This document shows positions 7,488 to 45,903 of a stretch of 64,000 nt of DNA, piece after piece. The stretch's first letter is position 1. Each line of letters opens with the position of its first letter. Source of the DNA: Nitrososphaerota archaeon (lineage in GTDB: Archaea; Thermoproteota; EX4484-205; JAAOZP01); NCBI GenBank assembly GCA_011605725.1, contig JAAOZP010000012.1:74238-138237 (forward strand), read 5' to 3'. The translations under genes were made by a program, and so were the position numbers. The notes beneath the pieces were generated by a model. It was not told where the DNA came from, ran no database searches, and saw only the letters and a list, made by a program, of their open reading frames with translations.

Positions 7488-8561
7488 ATGGAGCCGCGTG
7501 AAAGGGTTTACAGTGTTCTTAAAGGAAGAATGCCCGACAAGATCCCTTGGCTAATATATTCAAACCATCTTCCGAGAGGAAGCTTTGAACGTAGGATGAG
7601 AGAAATGGGGCTTGGACTTGATGAAAGATGCAGCATATACAGAGTATCCATGCCGAACGTCAAGATAGAGAGCAGAACAGTGGGCGACTACGTTTACACT
7701 ATTTACCGTACTCCGGTTGGTGAGCTGAAATCAACTACACGAATCGGAATGAGGTTTCAGTTTCCAGGCGGCTCGTGGACTGTTGAGCATCCTGTGAAAA
7801 ACGCGAGCGACATCAATGCTTTAATGTTCATGATAGAGGACACGGTCTACGAGCCGGATTACGAGAACTATGTCAGGATCAGGGAAGAACTTGAGGGAGA
7901 CGGGATTGTCACTGTTTGGGCTGACTACACGCCTCTTATGAAGATAATCATCAGATACATGGGTTTCAAAAACTTTTCAATCATGTATCGGAGAAACAGG
8001 GAGGTAATTGAGGAGCTGGTGGAAGCTCTGGATAAGAGTTTTCTAAAAATGTATAGGATAATAGCCGACTCGCCTGCTGAGATAGTTAGGATCGGTGATA
8101 ACATTGACTCGATGCTCATATCTCCAAGCCTCTTCGAGAAATACTGTTTACCATACTACAATAAGTATGTTGACATTCTTCACGAGAAAGGCAAGATTGT
8201 TATTTCACATATGGACGGTAGGCTTAAAGCACTTAAAAACCTCATCGGAGAAACAAGGCTGGACGCTATAGAGGCTTTCACACCCCCGCCTGGAGGAGAC
8301 CTTTCCCCGAAGGAGGCTAGGGAAGCCTGGAGAAATAAAGTGGTTTGGATGAATTTTCCCGAGGAAGTGTTTCTGAGAACACCGGAAGAAATAAGGAGCT
8401 TCACATTAAGACTACTGGAGGAAATTGCTCCTGGAAAAGGCTTTGTAATAAGTGTTACTGAAGATGCTCATCCAGACCACTATAGAAAAGGGATTGAAAC
8501 AGTTACTGAAACACTTTACAAACACGGCGGCCTGCCGATAAAACCACCGCTAACCAGGTGA
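7488..8561 (+). CDS. Uroporphyrinogen decarboxylase (URO-D) family protein, methyltransferase-like
   Basis: 357 aa; N-terminal PRERVYSVLKGRMPDKIPW pattern and overall length typical of URO-D/MtaA-like TIM-barrel proteins. Confidence 0.5.
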   Translation: MEPRERVYSVLKGRMPDKIPWLIYSNHLPRGSFERRMREMGLGLDERCSIYRVSMPNVKIESRTVGDYVYTIYRTPVGELKSTTRIGMRFQFPGGSWTVEHPVKNASDINALMFMIEDTVYEPDYENYVRIREELEGDGIVTVWADYTPLMKIIIRYMGFKNFSIMYRRNREVIEELVEALDKSFLKMYRIIADSPAEIVRIGDNIDSMLISPSLFEKYCLPYYNKYVDILHEKGKIVISHMDGRLKALKNLIGETRLDAIEAFTPPPGGDLSPKEAREAWRNKVVWMNFPEEVFLRTPEEIRSFTLRLLEEIAPGKGFVISVTEDAHPDHYRKGIETVTETLYKHGGLPIKPPLTR

Positions 8562-10720: not shown

Positions 10721-12457
10721 ATGCCTGTGAAAAAAAGCTGGCCTGTGCCGAGCGACATTGAAATAGCTTATAAAGCCGAGCTTCATCCAATTAATAAGGT
10801 TGCGGAGGACATTGGGATTCTGGATGAAGAACTTGAGAATTATGGCAAGTATATAGCTAAGGTAGACTATAGGAGCATTCTAAATAGGCTGAAGAATAGG
10901 CCTCGCGGCAAATTGATCATAGTAACTGCAATCACACCTACACCCCTAGGCGAGGGGAAAACAACTGTTTCAATAGGTTTAGGTCAAGCATTCTACGAAA
11001 GGGGTTTTAAAGTTATTAACACTCTGCGCGAACCATCGAAAGGCGTCACCTTCGGAATAAAAGGAGGTGCAACCGGCGGCGGCTACTCTCAAGCCTTACC
11101 TATGGACAGGATTAATCTTAATTTCACTGGAGACATACCAGCAGTAGAAATTGCCCATAACCTTTGTGCAGCAGCTGTAGACGCCAGCATACTTCACGGA
11201 AATCCTTTAAGCATCGACCCCTTATCAATCGAATGGCCCTATTGCATGGATGTTGAAGCTAGGGCTTTAAGACGAGCCGTCATAGGATTGGGGGGAAGGT
11301 CAAACGGCTATCCTAGAGAAGCGCGCTGGAGCATAACTGTAGCGACGGAAACAGCGGCCATTCACGCATTGGCAACTGGGTTGGAAGACTTGAGGAAGAG
11401 GCTGGGAAGAGCCGTCGTCGCCTACACCTATGATAGGAAACCGGTAACGTGTGAAGAGCTTGGAGTAGCAGGAGCAATGGCCGCCCTGCTCGTGGAAGCC
11501 ATTAAACCTAATCTAGTTCAATCTACAGAGGGTCACCCGGTTTTAATCCACGGATTCCCGTTTGCCAACATAGCACACGGAACCAACTCGATCATAGCCG
11601 ATCTAGTAGCTTTGAAGCTTGCGGATTACGTTATCTGCGAAACCGGGTTTGGCTCTGAATGCGGCTTTTCAAAGTTCTGCGACATTGTATGCCGCCAGTC
11701 CCCAGAGATAAGGCCTGACTGCGCCGTCATCGTCTGCACTGTTAGAGCCCTTAAAGAACACGGTGGCGCCTTCATGCTTCGTCCAGGAATGCCCTATAAG
11801 AAAGTTAAGAGGGCTGCGGAAACAGAAAACCTCCAGGCGGTTGAAAAAGGTTGTGAGAATTTAGCTAAACACATAGAAATAGTCCATAAATACGGTATTC
11901 CAGCCGTAGTAGCCATTAACAGGTTTATCACAGACAGCGAGAGGGAGATAAGGCTTGTGTGCGAAAAAGCCGTCGAGGCTGGTGCTGATGAGGTTGCAGT
12001 TGTAGACCCCTGGTCTAAAGGAGGAGAGGGCTGCCAAGAACTTGTTGACAAGGTTCTCGAAGTAATGAAGAAGCCTCGTGAACTGAAGTTTCTTTACCCC
12101 GATAAAGCCACCATCAAGGAGAAGATAGAGAAAATAGCTACTGAGCTCTATGGAGCCGGCGACGTGAAATATTCTCCTGAAGCAGAGGAAAAGATAGAGT
12201 TTTACACCAGCCTAGGGTACGATGGGCTTCCGGTAAACATGGCTAAAACACCCCTCTCCCTTTCGCACGACCCTCTCTTGAAAAACGTGCCTAAGAACTA
12301 TACGTTTCCAGTCAACGATATTTTCGTCTTCGTTGGAGCCGGCTTCCTCATACCGATATGCGGCGAAATACAGCTTATGCCCGGCCTCCCGAGAAAACCG
12401 GCTTTCCTAGGAATTGACGTGGACACGGAAACTGGAAGGATAAGAGGCCTCTTCTAA
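10721..12457 (+). CDS. fhs: Formate--tetrahydrofolate ligase (formyltetrahydrofolate synthetase)
   Basis: 578 aa; diagnostic PTPLGEGKTTVSIGL nucleotide-binding motif and full-length similarity pattern. Confidence 0.95.
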   Translation: MPVKKSWPVPSDIEIAYKAELHPINKVAEDIGILDEELENYGKYIAKVDYRSILNRLKNRPRGKLIIVTAITPTPLGEGKTTVSIGLGQAFYERGFKVINTLREPSKGVTFGIKGGATGGGYSQALPMDRINLNFTGDIPAVEIAHNLCAAAVDASILHGNPLSIDPLSIEWPYCMDVEARALRRAVIGLGGRSNGYPREARWSITVATETAAIHALATGLEDLRKRLGRAVVAYTYDRKPVTCEELGVAGAMAALLVEAIKPNLVQSTEGHPVLIHGFPFANIAHGTNSIIADLVALKLADYVICETGFGSECGFSKFCDIVCRQSPEIRPDCAVIVCTVRALKEHGGAFMLRPGMPYKKVKRAAETENLQAVEKGCENLAKHIEIVHKYGIPAVVAINRFITDSEREIRLVCEKAVEAGADEVAVVDPWSKGGEGCQELVDKVLEVMKKPRELKFLYPDKATIKEKIEKIATELYGAGDVKYSPEAEEKIEFYTSLGYDGLPVNMAKTPLSLSHDPLLKNVPKNYTFPVNDIFVFVGAGFLIPICGEIQLMPGLPRKPAFLGIDVDTETGRIRGLF

Positions 12458-12647: not shown

Positions 12648-13571
12648 GTGAAATGGATGAGGATGTTCAGGTTTAAGCAGGAACAGAAAATTTTTGATAT
12701 TGCCGGCGTGAAGATTGGCGGCCAGCCTGGTCAACTACCTACTGTCATGATGGGAAGCATATTCTACAGTAAACAGAAAATATTTGAGGATGAGAAGGCG
12801 GGAGTATTCTCTAAAGAGAAGGCTGAAGACTTACTGAATAAGGAGAGGGAGATATCGGACAAAACCGGTAATCCGAGGATTGTAGACGTATGCTGCACAT
12901 GGCCCCAGGCTTTTGGAAAACTCATCGAGTTCGTGGCTGACAAGATCGATGGGCCCCTAGCTATAGATGGAACCACTGAGGAGGCGAGGATTGCTGGAGC
13001 CAAGTATGTCGGCGAAGTCGGGTTGTCTGAACGCGTCGTATACAACTCGATAATGCCGCATATTAAAGAGGTGGAGATAAACGCGATTAGGGAGGCGAGG
13101 ATCAAATCCGCCGTCTTACTTACATATAACGCTAAAAACCCTACGATAACAGGAAGGATGCAGGTGCTTGACGAGCTTTTAGCATTAGCCTCGAAAGCGG
13201 GAGTTGAGAAAACACTGGTGGATACGACTGTCCTCGACATCCCTGATCCAGGACCAGTCAGCAAAGCCGTATACTTGGTGAAGGAGAAATACGGGTTGCC
13301 AGCTGGAGCGGGAACGCATAACGCAGTCCAGAGGTGGAACAAGATGCGTAGAATGGATAAAACACTTTTCTCAATCGCAAGCAGCGTAGCCGACGTGCTT
13401 CCAATATTCATGGGGGCGAACTTTGTAATATACGGGCCGATAGATAATGCCTCAAACGCGTATTTCCACTGTGCACTGGCTGACGCTTACGTAGCCTATA
13501 GCGTGCGGCAGGAGTTTGGAACAAGACCGTTAACCAGTAACCATCCATTGTTCAAAATATTCAAAACATAG
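12648..13571 (+). CDS. MtrH-family pterin methyltransferase (tetrahydromethanopterin S-methyltransferase subunit H-like)
   Basis: 307 aa; N-terminal FRFKQEQKIFDIAGVKIGGQPGQLPTVMMGSIFY resembles the conserved MtrH N-terminus; length fits. Confidence 0.6.
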   Translation: MKWMRMFRFKQEQKIFDIAGVKIGGQPGQLPTVMMGSIFYSKQKIFEDEKAGVFSKEKAEDLLNKEREISDKTGNPRIVDVCCTWPQAFGKLIEFVADKIDGPLAIDGTTEEARIAGAKYVGEVGLSERVVYNSIMPHIKEVEINAIREARIKSAVLLTYNAKNPTITGRMQVLDELLALASKAGVEKTLVDTTVLDIPDPGPVSKAVYLVKEKYGLPAGAGTHNAVQRWNKMRRMDKTLFSIASSVADVLPIFMGANFVIYGPIDNASNAYFHCALADAYVAYSVRQEFGTRPLTSNHPLFKIFKT

Positions 13572-13615: not shown

Positions 13616-14224
13616 TTAACGAAGTATCCTAACCTTCCCATGCTCGACTACGATTCTTCCTTCCTCGAAGAGACGGATACCCTCAACTAAGGCTTCACCC
13701 TCAGCCTCTTGAACCCTCTTCTTCAAAGTCTCCTCATCATCATCCTCCCTGACTTCAACAGCCTTCTGTATTATTATTGGCCCAGCATCCATCTTCTCGT
13801 CAACAAAGTGGAGAGTACAACCTGTAATCTTCACACCGGATTTAAGCACCGCACGGTGTACGTTCAGGTCCCATCCTGGAAAGGCTGGGAGAAGCGAGGG
13901 ATGAATGTTCATAATCCTATTCCTAAACTTTTCCACAAACTTGGAGCTCAGGATCCTGTTGTAACCTATGAGCAGAACTAGGTCAACCCTCCTACGCTCA
14001 AGCTCTGAAGCGACCTGCATATCGTAATCCACGGGATCCTTACCCTTAGGGTCTATGAATATTGCTTCTATACCGTTCCGTCTCGCCCTCTCCAGTGCAT
14101 ACGCGTCCTTCCTATTGCTTATGAGGCAGACTATTTCAGCATTCAACTTCTTGTTTCTAATCGCCTCTAGAATGGGTTCCATGACGGTGGCACGGGTTGA
14201 TGCAAGCACCCCTATTCTCAGCAT
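13616..14224 (-). CDS. purN: Phosphoribosylglycinamide formyltransferase
   Basis: 202 aa; MLRIGVLASTRATVMEPIL and NIHPSLLPAFPG motifs typical of PurN. Confidence 0.8.
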   Translation of the reverse strand: MLRIGVLASTRATVMEPILEAIRNKKLNAEIVCLISNRKDAYALERARRNGIEAIFIDPKGKDPVDYDMQVASELERRRVDLVLLIGYNRILSSKFVEKFRNRIMNIHPSLLPAFPGWDLNVHRAVLKSGVKITGCTLHFVDEKMDAGPIIIQKAVEVREDDDEETLKKRVQEAEGEALVEGIRLFEEGRIVVEHGKVRILR

Positions 14225-14230
14225 TTCAGA

Positions 14231-15064
14231 CTACGAGACCTCTGAGGCACATTCCACCAGATTGCGTATTATGGTTGCAACCGTCACCGGACCCACTCCA
14301 CCTGGAACCGGGGTTATCGCAGACGCTTTTTGAGAGACGCTTTGAAAATCAACATCCCCAACGAGAGTGCCTTCAACGAAGCTGGTTCCAGCATCGATTA
14401 CTACAGCGCCTTCAGCAACCATCTCGTCTGTTATGAGCCTTGGGACACCGGTTGCGGAGATTAAAACATCTGCCTTCAAAGTCTTCTCGCTCAAGTTTTT
14501 AGTCTTGACATGGCAAACAGTGACTGTTGCCATTCGCGAAGTTAGCATTGCGAACAATGGTCTTCCGACGAGAATACTGTTGTTCACAATAACAACGTCA
14601 GCACCCTCTACGTTAATTCCATACCACTCCAAAATCCTGATCACAGCGTTCGCCGTCGCCGTGGGCCTGGCCTCCCGACCAGATAACAATCTTCCCAGAT
14701 TTATCGGATGCAGACCGTCAACATCCTTCTTAACGTCTAAGGCTTCTAATACGTTTAGGGTTGACACGTTTTTCGGAAGCGGTAGTTGGACCACTATTCC
14801 ATGAACACCCGTATCCTCGTTCAACTTCTTTATGAGTGAAATGAGCTCGGCCTCGGAAGGATTGTTAAGCTCATGCACCACTGCTTTCCCCCCTACAGAG
14901 TTGCAGGCTTTAGCCTTCATCTTAACGAAAGAATCTTGGGCCTTTGAGTCCGAGGCCTTTATAATGTGTAGTGACGGCGTGAAACCCAGTTTCTCAATCC
15001 TTGTCTTAGCCTCAGCCAGCATCGCTTCAGCCACTGGCTTGCCGCTCAATATCTTACCCGCCAT
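14231..15064 (-). CDS. folD: Bifunctional methylenetetrahydrofolate dehydrogenase / methenyltetrahydrofolate cyclohydrolase
   Basis: 277 aa; N-terminal ILSGKPVAEAMLAEAK and overall FolD layout. Confidence 0.9.
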   Translation of the reverse strand: MAGKILSGKPVAEAMLAEAKTRIEKLGFTPSLHIIKASDSKAQDSFVKMKAKACNSVGGKAVVHELNNPSEAELISLIKKLNEDTGVHGIVVQLPLPKNVSTLNVLEALDVKKDVDGLHPINLGRLLSGREARPTATANAVIRILEWYGINVEGADVVIVNNSILVGRPLFAMLTSRMATVTVCHVKTKNLSEKTLKADVLISATGVPRLITDEMVAEGAVVIDAGTSFVEGTLVGDVDFQSVSQKASAITPVPGGVGPVTVATIIRNLVECASEVS

Positions 15065-15370: not shown

Positions 15371-16759
15371 ATGAAATGTTTTTATAGGGAACTTCTTTTG
15401 CAGTTGAGAATGAATAAAGGATCCGGCAACGCTAAGAATGAATTCAGGAAACTAGCAAGGGAAAGGATCTTAGCAATGCCTGATCAGCAGAGGAGGGAGA
15501 AGAGCTCAAGGGTGGTCTCGAATCTTAAAAGTCTAGAGGAGTTTTCGAGAGCGAAGTGCGTCATGGTTTACGTTTCTAAAGAGGATGAAGTTGACACGAT
15601 CAGGCTCATTACTGATATGTTGAAATCAGGTAAAAGAGTTGTGGTGCCCCTTGTTGATGAAGGAAGCGGGGAGCTGGTTCCATGCGAGATATCAGCTCTC
15701 GAAGAGCTGGTTGCCGGAACATTCGGCGTGATGGAGCCGGATCAGAAGAACATGAGAATCGTTAGCATGGATGAAATAGACCTTGTGGTGGTTCCTGGAA
15801 GAGCTTTCGACAGAAATTGCAACAGGCTTGGCAGAGGAAAGGGTTATTTCGACAGGTTTTTAAAGAGGTTTGGTAAAGGGAAGAAGGTAATTGGTTTAGC
15901 CTTTTCTGAACAGGTTTTCGAAAAAATACCGGTTGACGAGAACGATGTGAAGGTTGACATCGTGGTTACTGAATCCAGCATTATACGGCGCGACTCAGGA
16001 GAAACGAGAACAAGCATAAATAGAAAAAAGTTCGACGTACATAAGCTTGCTACCACCTCCCTGTTCACAGCGCTCTTCATCGTGCTAAGGGCAATCCCAG
16101 CATTCCCTATCATAGGTGTACCTGGAGGAAGCTTCCCGGTTTCAGATGCCATTCAGCCGCTTTACGGCGTCTTGCTAGACCCAGTTCACGGTGCAACCGT
16201 AATCCTCCTTGGGACAATTCTCGGTTTCTCAATAAAGCCTCCTAGGTTCCTCTATCTAGACTTCCTACCACCGCTCGTCAACACTTTGACTGTGAGTTTA
16301 CTCTGGAGGGGGAAAACATGGTTAGCACTCCTTATTTATTTTTCCGTATTAACCGCTTTCATGACAAGCCCGTTTAGCCTACTCCTTCTACGCCTCAACC
16401 TTTTTGGCTTAGAGGTGGAACTGCCGTTTCACTGGCTGCACCTAACCGCAATACCCCTATCTCTGATTCTCATCAGACTTAGCAGTTTTAAGCTTAAGGT
16501 TGATCGAATTGTATTGAAGTTTTCAGGATGCGCCCTACTCGGAACCATGGCGCAACACTCTATGGGTAGTTCTCTTTTCGAATACGTGTACGGCTTAACC
16601 GGAATGATAAACAGAGAAGGGTTTGAAAAAATCTGGTATATGGTCTTCTGGATATATCCCATAGAGAGGATGCTTCTAGTCCTAGCCAGCACGCTGGTTG
16701 GAGTACCTGCTACACGAGTATTGACCAAGATAATATGGAGGTCTCAGAATCCATCGTAA
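15371..16759 (+). CDS. 5-formyltetrahydrofolate cyclo-ligase fused to a C-terminal polytopic membrane domain
   Basis: First ~210 aa carry PGRAFDRNCNRLGRGKGYFDRF typical of 5-FCL; the remaining ~245 aa form about six hydrophobic helices in the same uninterrupted frame. Confidence 0.65.
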   Translation: MKCFYRELLLQLRMNKGSGNAKNEFRKLARERILAMPDQQRREKSSRVVSNLKSLEEFSRAKCVMVYVSKEDEVDTIRLITDMLKSGKRVVVPLVDEGSGELVPCEISALEELVAGTFGVMEPDQKNMRIVSMDEIDLVVVPGRAFDRNCNRLGRGKGYFDRFLKRFGKGKKVIGLAFSEQVFEKIPVDENDVKVDIVVTESSIIRRDSGETRTSINRKKFDVHKLATTSLFTALFIVLRAIPAFPIIGVPGGSFPVSDAIQPLYGVLLDPVHGATVILLGTILGFSIKPPRFLYLDFLPPLVNTLTVSLLWRGKTWLALLIYFSVLTAFMTSPFSLLLLRLNLFGLEVELPFHWLHLTAIPLSLILIRLSSFKLKVDRIVLKFSGCALLGTMAQHSMGSSLFEYVYGLTGMINREGFEKIWYMVFWIYPIERMLLVLASTLVGVPATRVLTKIIWRSQNPS

Positions 16760-18072
16760 GGCTCACCTGACCATATTGGTCTTGCTTCCCCAACGGTGAA
16801 AACCGAGCCCGTAACCAGTATTCTACCTTCTTCCCCAGCACGCGATAATGCTAGAGCCACTGCCTCTCTAACAGTCGGCTCAGAACAGTATTTAGCATTC
16901 ATACTCTTCAAAACATCTGCCATGCTCTCAATCGGAAGAGCTCTTCCCATGACGCCATGCTGAGTCAGGATGAACTCGTCCGTGATCCTTGCGACAGACC
17001 TGAGAATCTTATCATACTCTTTATCTGAAGAAATACTAACAACTGTTTTAAACCTGGCTCCCGGCAACATCTCCTCTATGCTCGAAGCTAATGCTTCAGC
17101 AGCCGCCGGATCCTTTGCACAATCCAATATGACTAAAGGGTGTTTGCTAATGGGCTCCAGCCTCCCTGGCCAAACAACGTTAGCAAGACCCCTTCTCACG
17201 GCTTCCTCATTGAAGTTTGATTCACCCCTTAGCTCTGAGAACTTCAGATAGCTAGCTATGGCCGTCGACACGTTTACTGCCTGAAAACTCCCCCTGAGCG
17301 AAACCTTAAGGTTCTCTAACAGTGTTCCCGCAAGTTCAACATTCAAAGTTATCCCGGTCAAGTCAGACTTTAAAACCCTGTGCTTAACATCCCTAGGTAC
17401 TAAGGTGAGCTCTGAGCCCAATTCCCTGCAGCGTTCCTCCACGACCTTAAGCGCTGGGCCTGAACAAGCCGATACAGTTGGGCGTCCACGCCTTATTATG
17501 CCTGCTTTCTCAAAAGCTATTTTCTCAACAGTATCACCCAGGTGCTTCATATGCTCTAAAGAAACATTGGTTATGACTGAGAGCACTGGGTCACACGCGT
17601 TTGTCGCATCAAGCCTGCCTCCCATACCAACCTCGACGACAGCTACATCAACATGCTTCATCGAGAAATATTTATACGCCATGGAGACGTTGCACTCGAA
17701 AAAAGTTGGGAAACGTCCTAACCTTTGCGAAACTTTTTCACCAGCCTTTTTAACCTCCTCATAGGTCTCCACGACTTCTCTCCTAGTTATTTCCCGGCCA
17801 TCTACAACTATTCTCTCTGTGAACCGGCAGAGGTGCGGCTTCGTGAACGTTCCAACCTTAAGACCTTCCTCGCGTAGGATTGAGCTGATCATGCTGACGG
17901 TAGAGCCCTTCCCATTAGTACCTCCTACTAGGATTACAGGATAATCCTGCTCCGGGTTTCCAAGCTCGTTTAAAAGCCCCTTAACGACGTCCAAGCCTAG
18001 TTTTATCCCCCTCAGCTCATAGAGCTCCTTTAGAACCCGCAGGTACTCAAGGTCATCGGTCCAAGCGCTCAA
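16744..18072 (-). CDS. folC: Folylpolyglutamate synthase / dihydrofolate synthase
   Basis: 442 aa; Mur-ligase P-loop ILVGGTNGKGSTVSMI and FolC-like length. Confidence 0.85.
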   Translation of the reverse strand: MSAWTDDLEYLRVLKELYELRGIKLGLDVVKGLLNELGNPEQDYPVILVGGTNGKGSTVSMISSILREEGLKVGTFTKPHLCRFTERIVVDGREITRREVVETYEEVKKAGEKVSQRLGRFPTFFECNVSMAYKYFSMKHVDVAVVEVGMGGRLDATNACDPVLSVITNVSLEHMKHLGDTVEKIAFEKAGIIRRGRPTVSACSGPALKVVEERCRELGSELTLVPRDVKHRVLKSDLTGITLNVELAGTLLENLKVSLRGSFQAVNVSTAIASYLKFSELRGESNFNEEAVRRGLANVVWPGRLEPISKHPLVILDCAKDPAAAEALASSIEEMLPGARFKTVVSISSDKEYDKILRSVARITDEFILTQHGVMGRALPIESMADVLKSMNAKYCSEPTVREAVALALSRAGEEGRILVTGSVFTVGEARPIWSGEPYDGF

Positions 18073-26354: not shown

Positions 26355-27362
26355 TCAGAGATCCGTGTAATCAAGCACTACTGGGAGCCCGGGTAGGACC
26401 GGTATTCTAGTTAGGCTGCTCGCCATCCTCCAGGCTTCTATGCTCCACTTACGATGCGCAGGGGTTTCCGAACCCTTATCTTTTATTGAGAAGGCTTTCG
26501 CGAGCATTGGTGATGATGCTATGATTGATGAGACTATTCCGCCTAAGAGGCCCAGCGGATTATTCAGAAAGAATGTTGCTAAAAGCCCAGTTAGCAAGCC
26601 TACTGCGGCGAGGGCTGCTGAGGCGGTTAGCATTGTTGCCCGTGACCTAGTGCTTAACGGGTACTCGACAAAGAGGACCCTGCCCCCGGCCGCGTCCAGG
26701 AGAATCCTGTACGGCTTACCCTTGTAAGCGTACTCCATTAGCCAGAACGGGTAGTGGACTAGCCCAAGATAGTTAACTTCAACCCTCTCAAGCCTCTTTG
26801 AGCCTCCGCAGCTCCTGCTAGCTTCATCCATAGCCTGCCCAGATATTAACCGGTACGCGATATTATAGGCTTCCTCGTAGCTCAAGGTAGGCATGTAGAA
26901 CCTGCTTCTCTGGGCTTGACTCGGGTTGAAGAAGCTTCTCCCCCTCACCGAGAACGAGAGTTCCTTGGCATGGTTGTCGAGCCAGGTGCCTGTGTACGCT
27001 GCCAGAATAGGCGTGTTCCGCGTCTCAAGGTAGCTGGCCTGCCTGTCGCCGTAGGAGCAGGAGGAGTATGCCTTGCAGCTGAAAACATGATAGGGAACGT
27101 TGTAGAGCTCAGCTTTGCGAAGATTAGCCTCAGCGTTGAAATCGTCAGGTACGCCGTACCTCCTGGTTATGAACTGCATTGCTTTACGCCAGGCTGACGG
27201 GCTCTCCACGTAGGCTGGAAACATGTAGTATGTCCAGGTCTTCCCGGTTGAAAGCTCGAAGGTGTGGCCGCAGTAGGGGCAGACGATTATTGAGGCTGAT
27301 TGCGGCGCGTTTATAGAAGCGTTGCAGTTTAGGCACGTGACTGTCTTCATGCTCACTTCCAC
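26355..27362 (-). CDS. Uncharacterised protein: N-terminal zinc ribbon, central conserved domain, C-terminal transmembrane hairpin (paralog A)
   Basis: 335 aa; CLNC...CPYC ribbon, internal W-x3-Y-x-YKG-x2-YR motif (FWLMEYAYKGKPYR), C-terminal hydrophobic segments; start overlaps paralog B by 10 nt. Confidence 0.5.
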   Translation of the reverse strand: MEVSMKTVTCLNCNASINAPQSASIIVCPYCGHTFELSTGKTWTYYMFPAYVESPSAWRKAMQFITRRYGVPDDFNAEANLRKAELYNVPYHVFSCKAYSSCSYGDRQASYLETRNTPILAAYTGTWLDNHAKELSFSVRGRSFFNPSQAQRSRFYMPTLSYEEAYNIAYRLISGQAMDEASRSCGGSKRLERVEVNYLGLVHYPFWLMEYAYKGKPYRILLDAAGGRVLFVEYPLSTRSRATMLTASAALAAVGLLTGLLATFFLNNPLGLLGGIVSSIIASSPMLAKAFSIKDKGSETPAHRKWSIEAWRMASSLTRIPVLPGLPVVLDYTDL

Positions 27363-28315
27363 TTCTCCTCCCTAACGTCGCTAACAGCCTTACTCGCCAG
27401 GAGGGCTCCGGCTGCTGAAACAAGTATGAAGCCGAGTACTGGAAACCATTCTCTGAAAGACGGCAGGAGGGCCAGTATGAAGGCGCCTGCCGCAACTGAC
27501 AGGATGCTTCCGAGTATGTACAGTATTCTCTGGCCTAGGAAGACTGGTTCCGAAACCCTTAGGAATTGAAGGTTGTAGCCTGAGACGCTTGCCCTATACA
27601 TTCCACCCTTATACTTGTATACGAGGCTCCACATCGGAGCCAGCAGTATCCAGAGCGAGTTCACCCTGGCCTCGCAGGAATAATAGTAGAAGCCGTCTAA
27701 GCCGTTGGATGAGCGTGTGCTTTCCCTCAGCTCGTCCTCAACCATGTCCTTAAGCTCGTCCTCAGCCTCCTCAGGGAGAAGCTCAGCGTTTAAAACCTGT
27801 AGCCCAACGTTCCTCCAGTCTACCGCAGCTAGGGGTTGAGGGTCTTTAGCGGACTTCGCCTGGCTCACAAGCTCCTCCAAGCCGTACTCAGCAGCCTCCC
27901 TCCTAGCCGTGAAGGCGAGCCTCATCGAAGTGTTGAAAGACCCTTTCTTCGTCACGGTCCTGGTGACGAACGATTTACCCCTTTTCTCAGTAACCCTCCG
28001 GAAACCGGACCACTCGACGAAAGCGGAAACATCCCCCATGAGAATCGGCACGTAGAAGCCCTGAGCCTCGACAAGCTCAATGTCGCCGTAGACCCTGCTC
28101 ATATCCGGGTCGCTCCTCATCCTGCTCCAGAAGGCGTTCACCACCTCATCCCTTGTCCGAGTCGGCAGTATGAATATTTCAAACCTCCCTGTTGAGAACC
28201 AGTTAACCGTCCCACAGTATTCGCACACGCATGCTATTGTCTCAGGAGTGTAATTCAAGGGAGCACCGCAGTTTGAGCATTTGAAGACCTTTTCAGATAT
28301 GGTTGACTCTGTCAA
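27353..28315 (-). CDS. Uncharacterised protein: N-terminal zinc ribbon, central conserved domain, C-terminal transmembrane hairpin (paralog B)
   Basis: 320 aa; CSNC...CEYC ribbon, motif MWSLVYKYKGGMYR, two C-terminal hydrophobic helices; start overlaps upstream gene by 4 nt. Confidence 0.5.
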   Translation of the reverse strand: MTESTISEKVFKCSNCGAPLNYTPETIACVCEYCGTVNWFSTGRFEIFILPTRTRDEVVNAFWSRMRSDPDMSRVYGDIELVEAQGFYVPILMGDVSAFVEWSGFRRVTEKRGKSFVTRTVTKKGSFNTSMRLAFTARREAAEYGLEELVSQAKSAKDPQPLAAVDWRNVGLQVLNAELLPEEAEDELKDMVEDELRESTRSSNGLDGFYYYSCEARVNSLWILLAPMWSLVYKYKGGMYRASVSGYNLQFLRVSEPVFLGQRILYILGSILSVAAGAFILALLPSFREWFPVLGFILVSAAGALLASKAVSDVREEKWK

Positions 28316-30094: not shown

Positions 30095-31249
30095 CTATTG
30101 GAGCTTTGCACCACAATTGAGGCAGAACTTTGAACCCTCAGGCACCGTGGACCCGCATTTCGGACAGTTAACACTCTGAGGCTGCAACTGAGCCCCACAG
30201 TTCATGCAGAACTTTGCGCCAGCAGGGTTCTGCGTTCCGCATTTCGGACAATTCACCGTGGCCTGCATGGGTGCACCGCAGCTCATACAGAATTTAGCTG
30301 TGCTCGGGTTCTGCGCCCCGCATTTAGGGCACGCTACTGTTCCTGCTGGAGGCGCGGCAGGTGGCTGCGCCGGCGGCGGAGGTGCTTGGATGGCTGCGCC
30401 GCAGGACGGGCAGAACTTGCTTGTAGAGGGTACTTGAGCTTTGCAGCTTGGACATATGACCATTGGTGCTGCGGCAGCCTGCTGCATTAGCTGGGGCACC
30501 AGAACTATTCCTGTTCCAGCCGCCGCCCCGGGCGACTTGCTTAGGGACTCGGCGACGCTCTTAGTCGTGTCCATCGCCATGACTTGTGTCGCAGCGCCGC
30601 CGGTCTGCTTTATCCAGAACAGCCTATCCCTGTACTCCGGCGTGGTGTCGACGCCCTCAAACTTTAGGTCTATGACGTCTACGCCGACGCGCTTAAACTC
30701 CTCGTCTATCGTTGCCTTAACCTTGAACGAAACCTCCTCAAGCTTTGTGAAGACCGTCACAAGGTCGTATTTCGAGAGCTGCGTTATCAGCCTCTCGTTC
30801 ATGAAGCCCCGTAGAAAGCTGTTTACGGATTCGGTGGTGTAGGCGCTCTGCCCTCCCACGACCTCCATTACGAACGTCTTTGGGTCTCCAACTTTAAACC
30901 AGAATGCCCCGTAGAACTTCAGGGGTGCGAGCTCAACCGTCTGCCCGCTGGCTCCGAACAATCCTTTAAACTGCTTCGTGGAGACGAATATGACTGTGGC
31001 TTTGAAAGGCGTGGTTTCGAAGCCAGCCACCCTTGTTAAGACGCCTGTGAGCAGCGGAAGGTTCATCGTTGTTAAAGTATGTCTGCCAGGCCCGAAGACA
31101 TCGTAGGCTTTGCCGTCCCTGAAGAATATTGCAGCCTCATACTCGTGGACGATCAGCTGAGCACCCCAGGTTATCTCCTCCTTAGGGTATCTCCAGACGA
31201 TGTCTTCAGCCGAGGCCCCTACCCACTCTATTATCTGAGGCATCTTCAA
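30095..31249 (-). CDS. SPFH (stomatin/prohibitin-like) domain protein with four tandem C-terminal zinc ribbons
   Basis: 384 aa; N-terminal ~250 aa SPFH-like; C-terminus carries four CPxCG-x7-KFCxxCGA units separated by a Pro-rich linker. Confidence 0.6.
   Translation of the reverse strand: MKMPQIIEWVGASAEDIVWRYPKEEITWGAQLIVHEYEAAIFFRDGKAYDVFGPGRHTLTTMNLPLLTGVLTRVAGFETTPFKATVIFVSTKQFKGLFGASGQTVELAPLKFYGAFWFKVGDPKTFVMEVVGGQSAYTTESVNSFLRGFMNERLITQLSKYDLVTVFTKLEEVSFKVKATIDEEFKRVGVDVIDLKFEGVDTTPEYRDRLFWIKQTGGAATQVMAMDTTKSVAESLSKSPGAAAGTGIVLVPQLMQQAAAAPMVICPSCKAQVPSTSKFCPSCGAAIQAPPPPAQPPAAPPAGTVACPKCGAQNPSTAKFCMSCGAPMQATVNCPKCGTQNPAGAKFCMNCGAQLQPQSVNCPKCGSTVPEGSKFCLNCGAKLQ
30098..30460 (-). repeat. 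In-frame tandem coding repeats (four ~75 nt units) encoding the zinc-ribbon modules of the SPFH protein
   Basis: Repeated ccgcatttcggaca / ccgcatttagggca-type units read on the plus strand; all inside the CDS. Confidence 0.6.
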
Positions 31250-31782
31250 ACACCTCCCTTAATGGAGACTATCTCCTCCTCCCTGGAGGCTAAGGCTGAT
31301 TCAAGCTCTCTAGCCTTGGCTTCAAGCTGCTTCAAGAGACCGGGGAGAACATCCAGGCTTCCGGCGCTTGCAGCATTTTCAGCCTCCTCAGCTGTTCTAG
31401 AGACCTCTTCACAAGCTCCTAGAAGCCTATAGTCGTGCTCCATCAGCCTGTCGAGCTCAGCCTCACGAACTTTAACAAGGTCGAAGAAGCCCGCGTAACC
31501 GTAGTCAGCATGCTCAATCTTGTTTATAACCCTGTCTAGGACCGCGGAAACCCTGTTCAGATTCTTAAACAATTCGACCGCGTTTGAGTCGGCAGCCTCT
31601 CTTGAAACTGTTTTCAAACGGAACCTGGCTGCCTCAAGCTTTTTAACCATGAAATCTCTTAGAAGCTTATCTGCTTCCCTCCTAACCTCCTTCTGCTTGT
31701 ATCCCCTGTAGCCCGGGATGTAGGAAGCTATCTTCTCAGCCAGCCCTCTTTTCTCCTCATACTCCTTTATGAATTCGCTCAT
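31246..31782 (-). CDS. Coiled-coil protein of unknown function (putative partner of the SPFH protein)
   Basis: 178 aa, highly charged Glu/Lys/Arg-rich helical sequence; stop overlaps the SPFH gene start by 4 nt. Confidence 0.4.
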   Translation of the reverse strand: MSEFIKEYEEKRGLAEKIASYIPGYRGYKQKEVRREADKLLRDFMVKKLEAARFRLKTVSREAADSNAVELFKNLNRVSAVLDRVINKIEHADYGYAGFFDLVKVREAELDRLMEHDYRLLGACEEVSRTAEEAENAASAGSLDVLPGLLKQLEAKARELESALASREEEIVSIKGGV

Positions 31783-34974: not shown

Positions 34975-36813
34975 CTAGCCTATAAGATTTATCTTCTTCA
35001 GAAGCTCCAGGGAGACTTCTCGCGTTAGGCTTTCCGGCCTGGAGAGGCTTCTGAAGGCTTGTGAAACATAGAGTAGCGTTGAAACGTCTTCATCGTTTAA
35101 AACACGTATCTTAACGTTTCCAAGTGACTCCAGGGCTTTCTGGAGCTCCGGGCTGACTGGGCTTGTAGTCAGCATCACAATCCTGTCGAGCTTCCTGCTT
35201 CTCGCGAAATCTATAAGCGGCTCAATACTGCTTCTTTTAAGCCCTTCAGAAGGCTTTGGCGCTTTAATCATCACTCCAACCTGGACACCTCCGCTTGACG
35301 TATCTGTGAAAAGAAGGTCTATCTCCCTCTTCCTGGTTAAGGATACGCTTATCCTCTTCCTGCCTATGAGGCTCTGTTTACCGAGAGCTGTTTCAATAAG
35401 GCTTGAAACAGCTTTTTCCAGCAGGATCGCCCTCTCAGAGGATTTTTCAATATTGTAGAACCTTGTGATTATCTGACTTTTAACATCGCTGTCAGGTGTA
35501 ACTGGAGTCACGGCCCTGGCGGCGGGCAGACCCATTTTCATAACGGCCTCCATAGCTATCACGGTGTCAACGTAGTCTGGCTGAGTAATGCCCCTTTCAA
35601 GTCTTTCAGCAAGTATCTCGATGCATGCGAAACACTCCGACAGCAGCCTCCTGATCTCCCCACCCGAGTTCGCCCAGAGGAGTTTAACACTATTCATTGG
35701 AAACAGGTTTGAATATGCTCCCTCATCCTTACCAAGGTAGAGGGCCTTCACATACCTGTCGATTATATCCTTGGCTTCTTCCACACTTATCTTCTCAAGG
35801 CTTATCGGGGTTGAGGAGACCCTGCTTACAATGGCCGGAGCCACTCTGAACCTCTGTCCCTTCAGCTCTTCAAACATAACTGGCGTTAGAAGCAGGAGTA
35901 TGAATAATCCACCAGGACCATTATCCACAATCCTCTTCAAAGTATGGAAGAAAACGTCAATATTATCATGCACAAGCGTCTCAACCTCGTCCACAACGAT
36001 TACGAAAGGAGCGTTGCTGACAAGCTTCGACAGATTCACCAGCGTCGTCAAGAATTTTAAAGCATTCTCGTCTGACTCCTTCAAGTAATCGCTCGAATGC
36101 TTAGCACCCCAGCTCCCATAGTATGGACTCGGAAGCCACAGTATCCATTTCGCAAGGTTAGGATCGATGAACCTCCTTGTTTTCGAAGGCTCAAATCTCG
36201 TTTCAAAAATTTTCCCAAGTTCTTCAAGCTCAAGCCTTACGAGCCCAGTTATTTCAAGCATTCCTTCCTCGACAAGTTTCCTTACAGCCCTGAAATCGTT
36301 TGAAACCATGTTGAAAGCCTCCCTAGCCTTCTCAGCCTTTTTACCCAGCACCGTTGGAATCAGACCGACGCTAACAGTTCTCTGAAAAAGCTCGTAACCC
36401 ATTCTGGAAATCAACACTTGATGGAGCCTCAGGGAAAGCTCCATTAGAAATTCTTCGCTGCCGAGTGTCTCCACGACTTTTGATGCGAAGAAGATTAAGG
36501 ACGGTTTGTAAACAGAGTCTTGAATAGTCGGCATGTAGGAGAAAGGCTGACCCGGTTTCTCCTGGCTCAGAAGATATTGCAGGTGGAGGGCGAGGTGCGT
36601 CTTCCCGCTTCCAGCATCCCCTATAAGCATATCGATCTTTGGCTCTTCAAGCTTGAAAGAATAGTCGATCTCCTCCCTGATTCTTTTCAACGCCCTTATC
36701 CTGGACTCGCCGCCAAGTATCCAGATTCTACTTGGAACAGGAGTCAGTGGAAAAGGGTTGGCTTCAAGCATAAGACGGGAATACTTATTTGACGATTGCA
36801 TAATGGTAGACAC
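34975..36813 (-). CDS. P-loop NTPase with C-terminal PD-(D/E)xK-like (restriction-endonuclease-fold) domain
   Basis: 612 aa; Walker A GDAGSGKT, Walker B FVIVVDEVE; C-terminal EIDLLFTD...VQVGVMIKA resembles a D...(E/Q)xK nuclease core; likely starts at an internal Met (about 36771). Confidence 0.5.
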   Translation of the reverse strand: MSTIMQSSNKYSRLMLEANPFPLTPVPSRIWILGGESRIRALKRIREEIDYSFKLEEPKIDMLIGDAGSGKTHLALHLQYLLSQEKPGQPFSYMPTIQDSVYKPSLIFFASKVVETLGSEEFLMELSLRLHQVLISRMGYELFQRTVSVGLIPTVLGKKAEKAREAFNMVSNDFRAVRKLVEEGMLEITGLVRLELEELGKIFETRFEPSKTRRFIDPNLAKWILWLPSPYYGSWGAKHSSDYLKESDENALKFLTTLVNLSKLVSNAPFVIVVDEVETLVHDNIDVFFHTLKRIVDNGPGGLFILLLLTPVMFEELKGQRFRVAPAIVSRVSSTPISLEKISVEEAKDIIDRYVKALYLGKDEGAYSNLFPMNSVKLLWANSGGEIRRLLSECFACIEILAERLERGITQPDYVDTVIAMEAVMKMGLPAARAVTPVTPDSDVKSQIITRFYNIEKSSERAILLEKAVSSLIETALGKQSLIGRKRISVSLTRKREIDLLFTDTSSGGVQVGVMIKAPKPSEGLKRSSIEPLIDFARSRKLDRIVMLTTSPVSPELQKALESLGNVKIRVLNDEDVSTLLYVSQAFRSLSRPESLTREVSLELLKKINLIG

Positions 36814-37294
36814 CTCTAGCCGTCTTCAAACCACTATTCGATTCGCCACTACCTGCATGAAGTTGAACGACATACGGATCACTACTGTTCAACTCTATTA
36901 TCCTCCTGTCGAATTCATCACCACTTATATTTAATTCTTCAGATACTTTAAGCCGGAGATCAGTTATTCTCACATAAGGTGCTATTGGACTAGACCTTAC
37001 CAAGTCGTTATACTTCAGCCTTAAGGTTTCGAGGAAACTTTGAGGCGACAGTTGCTCAGCCTCTTTAAGCCTAGCGTATTTTAAGAAAGGAAGGTTCCAA
37101 ATGCTCTTCATGCAATAGGCCCTGCCAGCCTCAGAAGTCCTATACTTTTTAACGGTCCTAGTCCTCCCCTCAACCGGTTCAAGATACCCTTTTTTAACTA
37201 GTTCTTTAAACTCTTTTTCAGTAAGCCTGCCAGCCTTCTTAACCATTTTCTCCGTGACCCCTTTAGGAGTGTCGGCGAATACAAGTGCAAGCAA
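36785..37294 (-). CDS. Small basic protein, possible winged-helix DNA-binding protein
   Basis: 169 aa Lys/Arg-rich ORF directly upstream of and overlapping the NTPase gene; fold assignment is inference. Confidence 0.35.
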   Translation of the reverse strand: MLALVFADTPKGVTEKMVKKAGRLTEKEFKELVKKGYLEPVEGRTRTVKKYRTSEAGRAYCMKSIWNLPFLKYARLKEAEQLSPQSFLETLRLKYNDLVRSSPIAPYVRITDLRLKVSEELNISGDEFDRRIIELNSSDPYVVQLHAGSGESNSGLKTARGVYHYAIVK

Positions 37295-37459: not shown

Positions 37460-37924
37460 ATGAGGGTGAAAAGGAAGCGTAAAATGGTTTTTCCCAGAAC
37501 CATGTTTGAATGCAAAGTGTGCGGGAAATGCTGCGTTGAGGATGTTAAGCGTGGTAGACGGATAGTTCTAACCGAGATTGACGCCTTAGAAATATCTAGC
37601 GCTACCGGAATAGGTTTGAACGAGTTCGCGGAGAAAAACAGTAGTGAAGCCTATCCGTACGCTATTAGGCTTGTCAACGGAAGATGCTTCTTCCTTAATC
37701 AGGACAACAAGTGCAGTATTTACCCGGTTAGACCTCTGGTGTGCAGGTTCTACCCTTTCGTAATGCATAAGATTGGAGAGACATACGTGTTTCACGCTGA
37801 CCCTTTCTGTCCAGGACTTGGGGAAGGCACTTATCTTGACGAAGAATATTTCGAAAGGCTTGTCGAGCTGGCTGAGAAGCGTTTAAAAAAGCCTACTGGG
37901 CTGTTCGAGGCGCGCCGCAGTTAG
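37460..37924 (+). CDS. YkgJ-family zinc/iron-chelating (CxxCxxCC) domain protein
   Basis: 154 aa; CKVCGKCC motif plus downstream CRFYPF and FCPG Cys motifs. Confidence 0.55.
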   Translation: MRVKRKRKMVFPRTMFECKVCGKCCVEDVKRGRRIVLTEIDALEISSATGIGLNEFAEKNSSEAYPYAIRLVNGRCFFLNQDNKCSIYPVRPLVCRFYPFVMHKIGETYVFHADPFCPGLGEGTYLDEEYFERLVELAEKRLKKPTGLFEARRS

Positions 37925-38468
37925 GGCACCTGGTCTCACTCTGCGGGAAAACAGTTCCACAATACTTGCATGAAACAGTGGATAGCACGTGCTGAATCTG
38001 GAGAGGCGGGGAAACATGTATTTCGATTGTTTTACTTGTCGCATCAGGCCGCCCTTCTACAGCAGCAACCCCCTTCAGACTCCAGGCTACGACCCTATCT
38101 AGGCTCTTGAAAGAAGGCTGGGCTCCTGGAGGTATTAGGATTTTAAACTGGTAGCTTTGGACAAAACCCTCGGGAACGTGAAGAGGCCCAGCCAACTGTG
38201 GTCTAGCTGAAAATATGACTGCAGAATCCCAGACCTGTTGCTCAACCTCCCTTTTAAGAGAAGCATTGTAAACCCTCCTGGTTCTACGTACCCGCTCAAT
38301 ACATTCAAGCTCGCACCTTATCTCCGTGCAGTCGAACTCTTCCTGAGACTCAACCTGTACTGCGCCCTCCACAGTGTCGCCAAGATAGAAGACCTGTTTA
38401 CTCAGAAACAGAGAGATGTTTACCCTGGGCGGTGTAACCTTATCCCTGAGTTTCTTAAACAGGCTCAC
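37893..38468 (-). CDS. Hypothetical protein with beta-rich N-terminal domain (possibly arrestin/Spo0M-like) and C-terminal zinc ribbon
   Basis: 191 aa; C-terminal CKYCGTVFPQSETRCPNCG zinc ribbon; 3' end overlaps the convergent YkgJ gene by 32 nt. Confidence 0.35.
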   Translation of the reverse strand: MSLFKKLRDKVTPPRVNISLFLSKQVFYLGDTVEGAVQVESQEEFDCTEIRCELECIERVRRTRRVYNASLKREVEQQVWDSAVIFSARPQLAGPLHVPEGFVQSYQFKILIPPGAQPSFKSLDRVVAWSLKGVAAVEGRPDATSKTIEIHVSPPLQIQHVLSTVSCKYCGTVFPQSETRCPNCGAPRTAQ

Positions 38469-44838: not shown

Positions 44839-45903
44839 TTAAGCATCGCATTCACCATAATAATTCATGAGGCTTTCGAAAGCCGTGCAAACCGCGTCTA
44901 TGTTTTCAAGCGGAACATCTGCATGAATCTCTGAATACATCATTAATCCTCCTTTCTCAGAACCGAGCTTGACAACAGCCTCATGAATGTGGCTCCTGAT
45001 TTCCTCAGGATTGCCGAAGGGGACAAGGAGTTGACGGTCTATATCCAGGTCGATGCAAACCCTCCCCTTGATCTCCTCTCTAATATTGTCTAGCCCGTTA
45101 ACCCGGTCCTGAATATTTAAGACTGAAACACCCGCTTCCATAAGGGCATCAGCCACCTCCATTATGTGGCCGTCAGTATGCAGGTAAACCCTTATCCCTG
45201 AATCCCTGACTCTCCCGAATATTTTCCTGTATGAAGGATAGATAAACCTTCTGAACGTCTTAGGGCTTATTGGCATCCTGTCTTGAAGACCAAGATCGTC
45301 CCCGAAGGAAACCATGTCAACCCTGAGCCTGATGAATCTTTCAACAAGAGCAAGATTATACTCGGTCAACATCTCTATTAGTTTTTCAAGCTGACTAGTG
45401 TTTCTCACGAAGTCCATCATCAGGTTTTCAAATCCTCTCAGATAATAGAGCCTTTGGAAGAAGAAGCCGTGAGGCATACTTCCGACAATAACATCATCCA
45501 TTTTCCTAGCATTTTCTATTCTCTCCTCAATCGCATCCCACGGGTCTAACCCACCACCCTCCTGAACAATGCCTTTCTCCGGATCGGGTAGACTATAGTG
45601 CGCAAAGTCAGACCAATCCTTCAAAGGGTGCTTCACAACCTGACCCTGCAACCCGCTTATGTTAAACCTCCATAAGCATCCGAAGTCATCCAAAACCTCT
45701 CTACCCTTCAACCTGCTTCCGAAGTTGTTAAAGTCGACACTTCCCTTCTTGAACGTTGGGAAAAGCCTAGGATGCCTAGCGAGCAGGTCCTCAAGCTTAT
45801 CCCTATACTTGCTCCAAGTCGTTGGGAAAATTCCCACTCTACAAGGGATCCACCCGCAACCATTCATGTCTATGACTCTAAGCTTTTTCACTCTGATGCT
45901 CAA
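44839..45903 (-). CDS. URO-D family protein (uroporphyrinogen decarboxylase-like, putative methyltransferase)
   Basis: 354 aa; C-terminal half (YLHTDGHIMEV...) follows the URO-D TIM-barrel pattern. Confidence 0.5.
   Translation of the reverse strand: MSIRVKKLRVIDMNGCGWIPCRVGIFPTTWSKYRDKLEDLLARHPRLFPTFKKGSVDFNNFGSRLKGREVLDDFGCLWRFNISGLQGQVVKHPLKDWSDFAHYSLPDPEKGIVQEGGGLDPWDAIEERIENARKMDDVIVGSMPHGFFFQRLYYLRGFENLMMDFVRNTSQLEKLIEMLTEYNLALVERFIRLRVDMVSFGDDLGLQDRMPISPKTFRRFIYPSYRKIFGRVRDSGIRVYLHTDGHIMEVADALMEAGVSVLNIQDRVNGLDNIREEIKGRVCIDLDIDRQLLVPFGNPEEIRSHIHEAVVKLGSEKGGLMMYSEIHADVPLENIDAVCTAFESLMNYYGECDA

Follow-up and report, generated by a model that had tools for sequence, protein, structure and literature searches.

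Here, we describe a gene for a two-domain protein in a 64-kb stretch of DNA (64,000 nucleotides; contig JAAOZP010000012.1, positions 74,238 to 138,237; hereafter the window) that originates from a hot-spring archaeon labeled Nitrososphaerota. The open reading frame (ORF) list and the raw sequence agree that positions 15371-16759 of the plus strand form a single unbroken frame of 462 codons, as stated in the original prediction, which had been made from the sequence alone. The encoded protein consists of a 5-formyltetrahydrofolate cyclo-ligase (5-FCL, also named MTHFS) domain at residues 22-201, a basic linker of ~20 amino acids, and a membrane domain of ~240 amino acids. In public annotation, it appears merely as "5-formyltetrahydrofolate cyclo-ligase." Residue numbers given below follow the 462-codon ORF, and 13 should be subtracted to obtain the likely mature numbering.

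The frame offers alternative starts. ATG 15371 yields the maximal 462-amino acid form, and TTG 15398 yields the 453-amino acid form called in P0001. The orthologues are 444 to 453 amino acids long, mostly 449, and the majority begin at the position of codon 14 (ATG 15410). A TATA-box-like element, TTTTATA (15380-15386, plus strand), is located within the conserved sequence GTTTTTATA, ~24 to 27 nucleotides upstream of ATG 15410, and presumably acts as a promoter. Wherever the equivalent ATG could be located in a fused locus, the GTTTTTATA box is strictly kept ~24 to 27 nucleotides 5′ of it, and its conservation extends to loci that are only 55 to 60% identical in protein (seen in L010, L015-L024, and L037). 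Because of the position of this box and the orthologues starting at the same site, the real start is most likely ATG 15410, with a leaderless transcript and a 449-amino acid rather than a 462-amino acid product. The likely coding sequence would thus span 15410-16759 on the plus strand (449 amino acids plus stop).

The N-terminal domain (15434-15973, plus strand) was delimited with PF01812, TIGR02727, and alignments to the PDB structures 1sou and 3hxt. It scored 148.6 bits with PF01812 (cut-off 27), covering positions 1 to 186 of the 186 in the profile, and 163.7 bits with the equivalog model TIGR02727 "MTHFS_bact" (cut-off 84.9). The best solved relative was Aquifex MTHFS (1sou, E=1e-34), and human MTHFS (3hxt) matched with an E value of 2e-27. 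MTHFS enzymes carry three signature motifs, an N-terminal K-x3-R, PGxAFD, and GxGxGY[YF]D. All of them are intact in the alignment to 1sou, as K22-x3-R26, PGRAFD (142-147), and GRGKGYFD (154-161), and the signature PGRAFDRNCNRLGRGKGYFDRF occupies residues 142-163 (nucleotides 15794-15859). The 5-FCL signature that had been recognized in the first ~210 amino acids was therefore confirmed by two models scoring far above their curated cut-offs. Over their full length, the first 180 residues can be aligned with the canonical soluble enzymes (E. coli YgfA, human 3HXT, and Aquifex 1SOU); in contrast to these stand-alone proteins of ~190 to 200 amino acids, the fusion protein adds a C-terminal membrane domain of 240 amino acids. 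Judged by its sequence, the N-terminal domain is a canonical, motif-complete 5-FCL, with a predicted ATP-dependent conversion of 5-formyltetrahydrofolate (5-formyl-THF) to 5,10-methenyl-THF. A thiamin-linked 5-FCL-like paralogue exists within COG0212 (PMC3223725, PMC5041015). We disfavored this identity, as the domain passes the MTHFS equivalog model and has FolD, FolC, PurN, and SHMT as neighbors; no thiamin genes were seen in the gene context of the fusion.

The linker (15974-16036, plus strand; residues 202-222, ESSIIRRDSGETRTSINRKKF...) was modeled with low confidence, the predicted local distance difference test score (pLDDT) being below 50 at residues 210-221. A full-length AlphaFold2 model reached a pLDDT of 72 and a predicted template modeling score of 0.49 with the linker disordered; its interdomain geometry is unreliable and was not used for the mechanism. 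An A-rich run, AGAAAAAAG, lies near the junction (~16021-16029), and relatives with separate-gene versions exist, so that a frameshift, an assembly error, or a mis-joined ORF might have made two genes look fused. However, when 5.8 billion proteins were searched, 20 protein clusters (90% clustering) shared this two-domain layout; they are 55 to 100% identical and come from NCBI, JGI, ENA, and Logan assemblies. A hidden Markov model scan of six-frame ORFs detected both domains in one frame at 13 loci including the window, and further metagenome loci behaved likewise; a scan of metagenomes added fused loci, among them a 100% match on a 438-kb contig. The frame is thus continuous in assemblies and samples that are independent of each other. 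These loci have diverged at the nucleotide level, with a linker of conserved length, and the split forms are a distinct sister clade with genuine stop and start codons. Such recurrence of a single frame is far beyond chance. Two of the checks proposed with the original prediction came out in favor of a real fusion: no frameshift or sequencing error was found at the junction in any of these sets, and the fusion recurs in Brockarchaeota and related Thermoproteota. Its carriers among reference genomes are the Candidatus Brockarchaeota metagenome-assembled genomes (MAGs) DRTY-6.80, JZZ.4, and GD2_1 and MAGs labeled Thermoproteota or Nitrososphaerota. An artifact is effectively refuted, and we give it almost no credence.

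A sister clade (P0021 and P0184, 55 to 57% identical), represented by loci L001-L004 and L040, encodes the 5-FCL and the membrane protein in two separate genes. There, the 5-FCL frame stops and the membrane gene begins in another frame, either with a 20-nucleotide overlap (GTG start) or 4 nucleotides downstream (TTG start). A comparison of the junctions in L001 and L003 placed this stop codon and new start at the position of the linker. The split pairs are adjacent, co-directional, and translationally coupled, and they lie within the same folate synteny. It had been argued that a membrane part matching an unrelated family in a separate gene would speak against a genuine fusion; instead, the split relatives hold the same two families side by side. 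A rough neighbor-joining tree computed for the membrane domain groups the fused forms in one clade, with the split forms as its sister. We conclude that one fusion (or fission) event separates the two arrangements and that the fused gene arose from an adjacent, translationally coupled pair. By Rosetta-stone logic, the adjacency of the two genes in the sister clade strengthens the functional link between the two parts.

5-FCL was also found joined to other, N-terminal and unrelated, membrane parts (L032, 1020-1838; L031, 4144-5439). P0023 combines a TatA/B-like helix with 5-FCL in a tatA-tatC operon, and P0029 combines an Rce1-like CPBP domain with 5-FCL. We set both aside as independent events, as their membrane parts are N-terminal and unrelated to the S-fold domain described below. 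Since the TatA/B-like and Rce1-like fusions are unrelated, membrane tethering of 5-FCL has arisen more than once.

The C-terminal domain (16037-16756, plus strand; residues 223-462) gave a confident model with seven helical segments and two β-hairpins. Fold comparison placed it with the six-helix fold of the S-components in energy-coupling factor (ECF) transporters, and we conclude from the model that the domain has an ECF S-component fold. The membrane domain with about six hydrophobic helices that had been proposed from hydropathy was thus upheld as a membrane domain, while the simple count of six gave way to the seven segments and two hairpins. Likewise, the suggested likeness to an ECF S-component held for the fold and failed for the size, as the domain is ~60 to 80 amino acids longer than solved S-components.

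At the level of sequence profiles, the membrane domain matches PF12822 (ECF_trnsprt) and PF07155 (ECF-ribofla_trS) weakly but consistently over helices 1-5, and the descriptions of these models lack the invariant motifs of the membrane family. All seven members tested match PF12822 weakly. The profile check against S-component families, also proposed at the outset, gave a divided answer: the window domain remained below threshold, while distant members exceeded the curated cut-offs (P0039 with 40.9 bits for PF12822; P0168 with 32.9 and P0050 with 30.0 bits for PF07155). Because these relatives in the same family pass, homology of the window domain to S-components is supported transitively, and formal family membership is not. 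We rejected membership of the FolT family, as the domain scores far below the cut-off of TIGR04518. Its identity to FolT (PDB 4Z7F, 5D0Y, and 4HUQ chain S) is only 11 to 12%, and RibU and BioY are just as close to it. It further differs from FolT in its greater length, two β-hairpins, an extra helical element, an archaeal origin, and the covalent fusion to 5-FCL.

When 1.84 billion representatives (50% clustering) were searched exhaustively with a profile, only 293 relatives of the membrane domain came up at E≤0.001. Almost all of them stand alone, as proteins of 235 to 275 amino acids without informative annotation, and one representative only is a fusion; none of the Pfam and NCBIfam models in the copies searched covers the family. 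Its members share the motifs PxFP..G..G..F..D, PPxFLxLDFLP, PFxWLH, GTMxQH, and WxxxFWxYPxER, with D259, D297, W355, H357, Q395-H396, W422, Y429-P430, and E432-R433 near-invariant. Helix 1 of the window domain contains S230-x3-A234 (S230-L-F-T-A234) and R240. At the corresponding domain positions 16 and 20, alanine or serine is found in 31 of 43 members and alanine in 35 of 43, respectively. An AxxxA motif in helix 1 docks S-components on EcfT (PMC11109136), and the [A/S]xxxA pair at least resembles it in sequence. In EfFolT, folate is bound by Arg26, Lys36, Asp64, Phe80, and Arg142, and FolT-type pterin recognition involves an arginine at the end of helix 1, an aspartate, and an aromatic stack (PMC4525288). 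R240 at the end of helix 1, D259/D297, and conserved aromatic residues loosely resemble this pterin site, which we treat as a lead only.

The fusion gene is embedded in genes of folate and one-carbon (C1) metabolism. FolD (methylene-THF dehydrogenase/methenyl-THF cyclohydrolase; 14231-15064, minus strand; PF02882 and PF00763) is divergent from it and, wherever the flank of a locus is long enough, is conserved upstream of the fusion; FolD consumes the product of 5-FCL. On its other side, a member of the FolC (folylpolyglutamate/dihydrofolate synthase) family with Mur ligase domains (16744-18072, minus strand; TIGR01499, 333.5 bits versus a cut-off of 162.65) is convergent, an arrangement shared by the whole 5-FCL-linked clade (27 of 27 loci). 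At their 3′ ends, the fusion gene and folC overlap by 16 nucleotides (16744-16759), which leaves no space for terminators and implies overlapping convergent transcripts. An overlap of exactly 16 nucleotides with folC is kept in distant relatives (L010, 11323-11338; L001, 2322-2337). Next to FolD lies a PurN-type, 10-formyl-THF-dependent formyltransferase (13616-14224, minus strand; PF00551, 172 bits) in conserved synteny. Wherever a fused or split locus has sufficient flank, the gene order is invariant, with PurN-FolD(-SHMT) pointing leftward, 5-FCL and the membrane part rightward, and FolC(-PurH) leftward again.

Farther upstream are a formate-tetrahydrofolate ligase (Fhs; 10721-12457, plus strand; PF01268, 756.9 bits) and an MtrH-family methyltransferase (12648-13571, plus strand; PF02007, 293.5 bits; NF002142, 298.9 bits versus a cut-off of 287). 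The latter sits between Fhs and PurN/FolD and is retained together with Fhs in the closest relatives; it scored 267.8 bits with the MtgA model, which describes a methyl-corrinoid:tetrahydrofolate methyltransferase. Brockarchaeota and their relatives have been proposed to base their catabolic C1 metabolism on tetrahydrofolate (H4F), which is unusual for archaea. The phylum is predicted to use the H4F methyl branch, and the protein that takes methyl groups off the corrinoid protein and passes them to H4F was called "undescribed" (PMC8065059). The MtrH-family protein is an obvious candidate for this transfer. The supplementary tables of the same study hold no KEGG orthologues of folate biosynthesis and are thus silent on folate auxotrophy (PMC8065059).

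The wider membrane family is found in further cofactor contexts. In ~27 loci, two genes lie directly upstream of the membrane gene and are co-directional with it (L053-L113, for example L064, 1893-4403, and L107, 8292-10738; L005/L006; L012). One encodes β-ribofuranosylaminobenzene-5′-phosphate (β-RFAP) synthase (NF040726, 341 versus 328 bits), the other a dihydropteroate-synthase-like protein (TIGR00284, 399.5 versus 256.65 bits). We take this gene set to be a methanopterin-biosynthesis operon, and the largest clade of the family lies inside operons of this type. The arrangement suggests that the stand-alone members there are an unrecognized membrane component, or a precursor importer, of the methanopterin pathway. 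LarC, identified by the NCBIfam models LarC1 and LarC2, is directly upstream of a family member in six loci (L007/L008, 5621-7696; L009, 5715-7783; L014, 5723-7819; L027; L028). With the nickel-pincer cofactor cyclometallase as neighbor, members of this clade may be carriers of nickel or a cofactor precursor. SHMT follows immediately downstream on the same strand in four members (L030, 3-1983; L080, 7245-9559; L093, 537-2703; L101, 151-1747). The L030 contig is labeled Candidatus Acidoferrum (Acidobacteriota); the family may thus not be strictly archaeal, or this bin may be contaminated. One further family member overlaps a gene for an F420-type LLM oxidoreductase.

The most distant member (L013, 7001-8513; 27% identity) shows a convergent 23-nucleotide overlap with CofE (F420-0:glutamate ligase). 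This layout mirrors that of the fusion and FolC, both neighbors being γ-glutamyl ligases acting on cofactors. We rejected a folate-type FolC2 identity for the PF01996 neighbor of the distant member P0277, which scored 193.6 versus 180.65 bits with the CofE equivalog and 118 versus 350 bits with the folate-type model. The closest members without 5-FCL (L046, 7143-11513; also L048, L050, and L070) were recovered from hot-spring metagenomes that also yielded the fusion. They share a compact operon with genes for two radical-SAM enzymes, a nucleotidyl transferase, and a small protein resembling methyltransferases. Clade-specific cofactor contexts such as those with methanopterin, LarC, SHMT, and F420 genes are the pattern typical of S-components for vitamins or precursors, and the gene neighborhoods tie the family to pterin-type C1 carriers.

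ECF transporters energize their S-components through an EcfAA′T module, and such genes were found near some relatives. An EcfA-A′-T operon is located 4.5 kb from one stand-alone family member (L012), and an EcfA pair lies ~3.4 kb from two others. In a published KEGG table, ecfT is recorded for 14 of 15 Brockarchaeota MAGs and ecfA1/A2 for a few, and recognized S-components are nearly absent from it (PMC8065059 supplement). Because of the wide presence of ecfT, the Ecf genes near relatives, and the small-xxx-small pair in helix 1, dependence of the membrane domain on an ECF module is plausible.

Our preferred interpretation, which we consider on balance probable, is that the protein is an S-component-type folate importer tethered to 5-FCL, in which uptake through a shared ECF module would be coupled to metabolic trapping. 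Folate uptake coupled to activation fits every context result and is probably the role of the protein; we infer that the domain transports, that folate is the substrate, that the N terminus is cytoplasmic, and that an ECF module is used. The C-terminal domain would reside in the membrane with the N terminus in the cytoplasm and bind an external reduced folate, most plausibly 5-formyl-THF (folinate). 5-Formyl-THF is the most stable natural reduced folate and the only known substrate of 5-FCL, and for these reasons it is the most plausible cargo. The folate would be carried inward, probably by docking on a shared EcfAA′T encoded elsewhere ("group II" arrangement). The N termini of S-components are cytoplasmic, as established from the structures of RibU, ThiT, and BioY; an N-terminal fusion would thus place 5-FCL in the cytoplasm. 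Held at the cytoplasmic face by the ~20-amino acid linker, 5-FCL would convert 5-formyl-THF to 5,10-methenyl-THF with ATP, the neighboring FolD would pass this product into the C1 pool, and the neighboring FolC would polyglutamylate folate for retention. The same 5-FCL domain may also recycle intracellular 5-formyl-THF arising from the side reaction of SHMT.

Several points weigh against this interpretation. Transport and ligand binding by the domain are predictions from sequence. The window protein scores below the curated S-component thresholds (PF12822, 24.8 versus 30.7 bits; PF07155, 23.5 versus 26.7 bits) and reaches only 17.0 to 17.6 bits with the FolT family model TIGR04518 (cut-off 60), and the membrane-family profile found no match among PDB chains (best E=2.1, a hexosaminidase). 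Neither a THF riboswitch nor another RNA was detected upstream of the fusion gene, the sole hit being a chance snoRNA match (E=7.7); a THF riboswitch would not be expected in archaea anyway. Helix 1 of the window protein has SxxxA instead of the strict AxxxA. No EcfT or EcfA and no ABC ATPase signature occur in the 64-kb window, and the 10 kb on either side of the fused and split loci (~25 loci) contain no EcfT or EcfA homologues. The missing motif and the missing module would suit a solitary, ECF-independent S-fold importer that acts as a facilitator, like BtuM or solitary BioY, with the ATP-dependent, practically irreversible 5-FCL cyclization and subsequent FolC trapping as the sole drive. 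In such an importer, the invariant polar network and the extra structural elements of the family would serve as a translocation machinery of its own. The ~60 to 80 extra residues and the family-wide set of charged and polar residues, not seen in canonical S-components, point the same way, and BtuM offers the precedent of a solitary S-fold transporter co-localized with a trapping enzyme. Moreover, covalent tethering of a trapping enzyme makes most sense if trapping drives uptake. However, S-components of group II are usually encoded apart from their module, which leaves a local absence with little weight, and EcfT is reported in nearly all Brockarchaeota MAGs, the small-xxx-small pair of helix 1 is conserved, and three stand-alone members do have Ecf genes nearby. 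We consider a solitary importer unlikely. Equally tentative is a group-translocation-like variant, in which the S-fold protein would hand external 5-formyl-THF to the tethered 5-FCL and the reaction itself would drive uptake. Under this variant, the extra structural element and the polar network of D259, D297, H357, Q395-H396, and E432-R433 would mark a new class of S-fold membrane protein.

The remaining points concern whether the membrane domain transports folate at all. About 25 residues, R240 among them, stay near-invariant from clade to clade, even though the gene contexts of these clades indicate different cofactors. Such cross-clade invariance is atypical for S-components and could reflect a shared non-transport function; near-invariant polar residues common to the folate-, methanopterin-, F420-, and LarC-linked clades suggest a common function over clade-specific binding sites. 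In addition, the largest clade resides in a biosynthetic (methanopterin) operon with no salvage context, and the S-component fold has known non-transport roles, for example, in MreD scaffolds and 5TMR sensor kinases (PMC11109136). The domain might accordingly be an anchor, a scaffold, a sensor, or a membrane enzyme of pterin-cofactor metabolism, or else a carrier of pterin, para-aminobenzoate (pABA), or pABA-glutamate, with 5-FCL merely tethered or neutrally fused. 5-FCL is independently at home in the folate/SHMT cluster, where recycling of endogenous 5-formyl-THF gives it a reason of its own, and the fusion could be a neutral read-through of the coupled gene pair. We rate such a role outside folate transport as improbable, and we retain the tethered, ECF-type folate importer as the preferred interpretation.

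The window contains further features apart from the folate genes. Four URO-D-family paralogues (7488-8561, plus strand; 44839-45903, minus strand; 46013-47122, plus strand; 47134-48300, minus strand) are weakly similar to MtaA/methylcobalamin:CoM-methyltransferase, which deserves attention since Brockarchaeota were reported to be without MtaA. A bacterial-type pair of acetate kinase and phosphotransacetylase is found at 52359-54571 on the minus strand (PF00871, 517 bits; PF01515, 371 bits) of this archaeal contig. Two proteins encoded at 37893-38468 and 30095-31249, both on the minus strand, carry an Arrestin_N-like domain (38.3 versus 24.9 bits) and an SPFH/Band-7 domain with multiple zinc ribbons, respectively. 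Several neighboring ORFs (26355-28315, 31246-31782, and 36785-37294) had no Pfam match.

FolT-type folate S-components, soluble 5-FCL, and the pairing of transporters with enzymes are already known. The new elements here are a divergent S-fold family from archaea, with genomic links to both folate and methanopterin genes, and its covalent fusion to the enzyme of the presumed cargo; we found no description of a 5-FCL/S-fold fusion in the searchable literature. A precedent is BtuM with BtuR, an S-fold transporter paired with a trapping enzyme (PMC6072759). In that case the trapping enzyme is a separate protein, in contrast to the covalent arrangement described here, with its predicted ATP-dependent cyclization of 5-formyl-THF. 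The Pnu-family facilitators with their kinases, which are again separate proteins, offer a conceptual parallel only (PMC5749112).

If the preferred interpretation is true, an S-component fused to the enzyme that converts its cargo would be a clean natural case of transport coupled to metabolic trapping. How Brockarchaeota supply and maintain their folate has not been addressed so far, and the fusion points to a candidate salvage route that would lead from uptake through 5-FCL to FolD and FolC. The membrane family would also supply candidates for the missing substrate-binding partners of EcfT in these archaea. Should the group-translocation-like variant apply instead, the wider family would fill a gap in Thermoproteota archaea, as the system that takes up or handles their pterin-type C1 carriers (folate and methanopterin). 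The fusion thus offers a handle for assigning a function to an uncharacterized archaeal membrane family of 293 representatives at 50% clustering.

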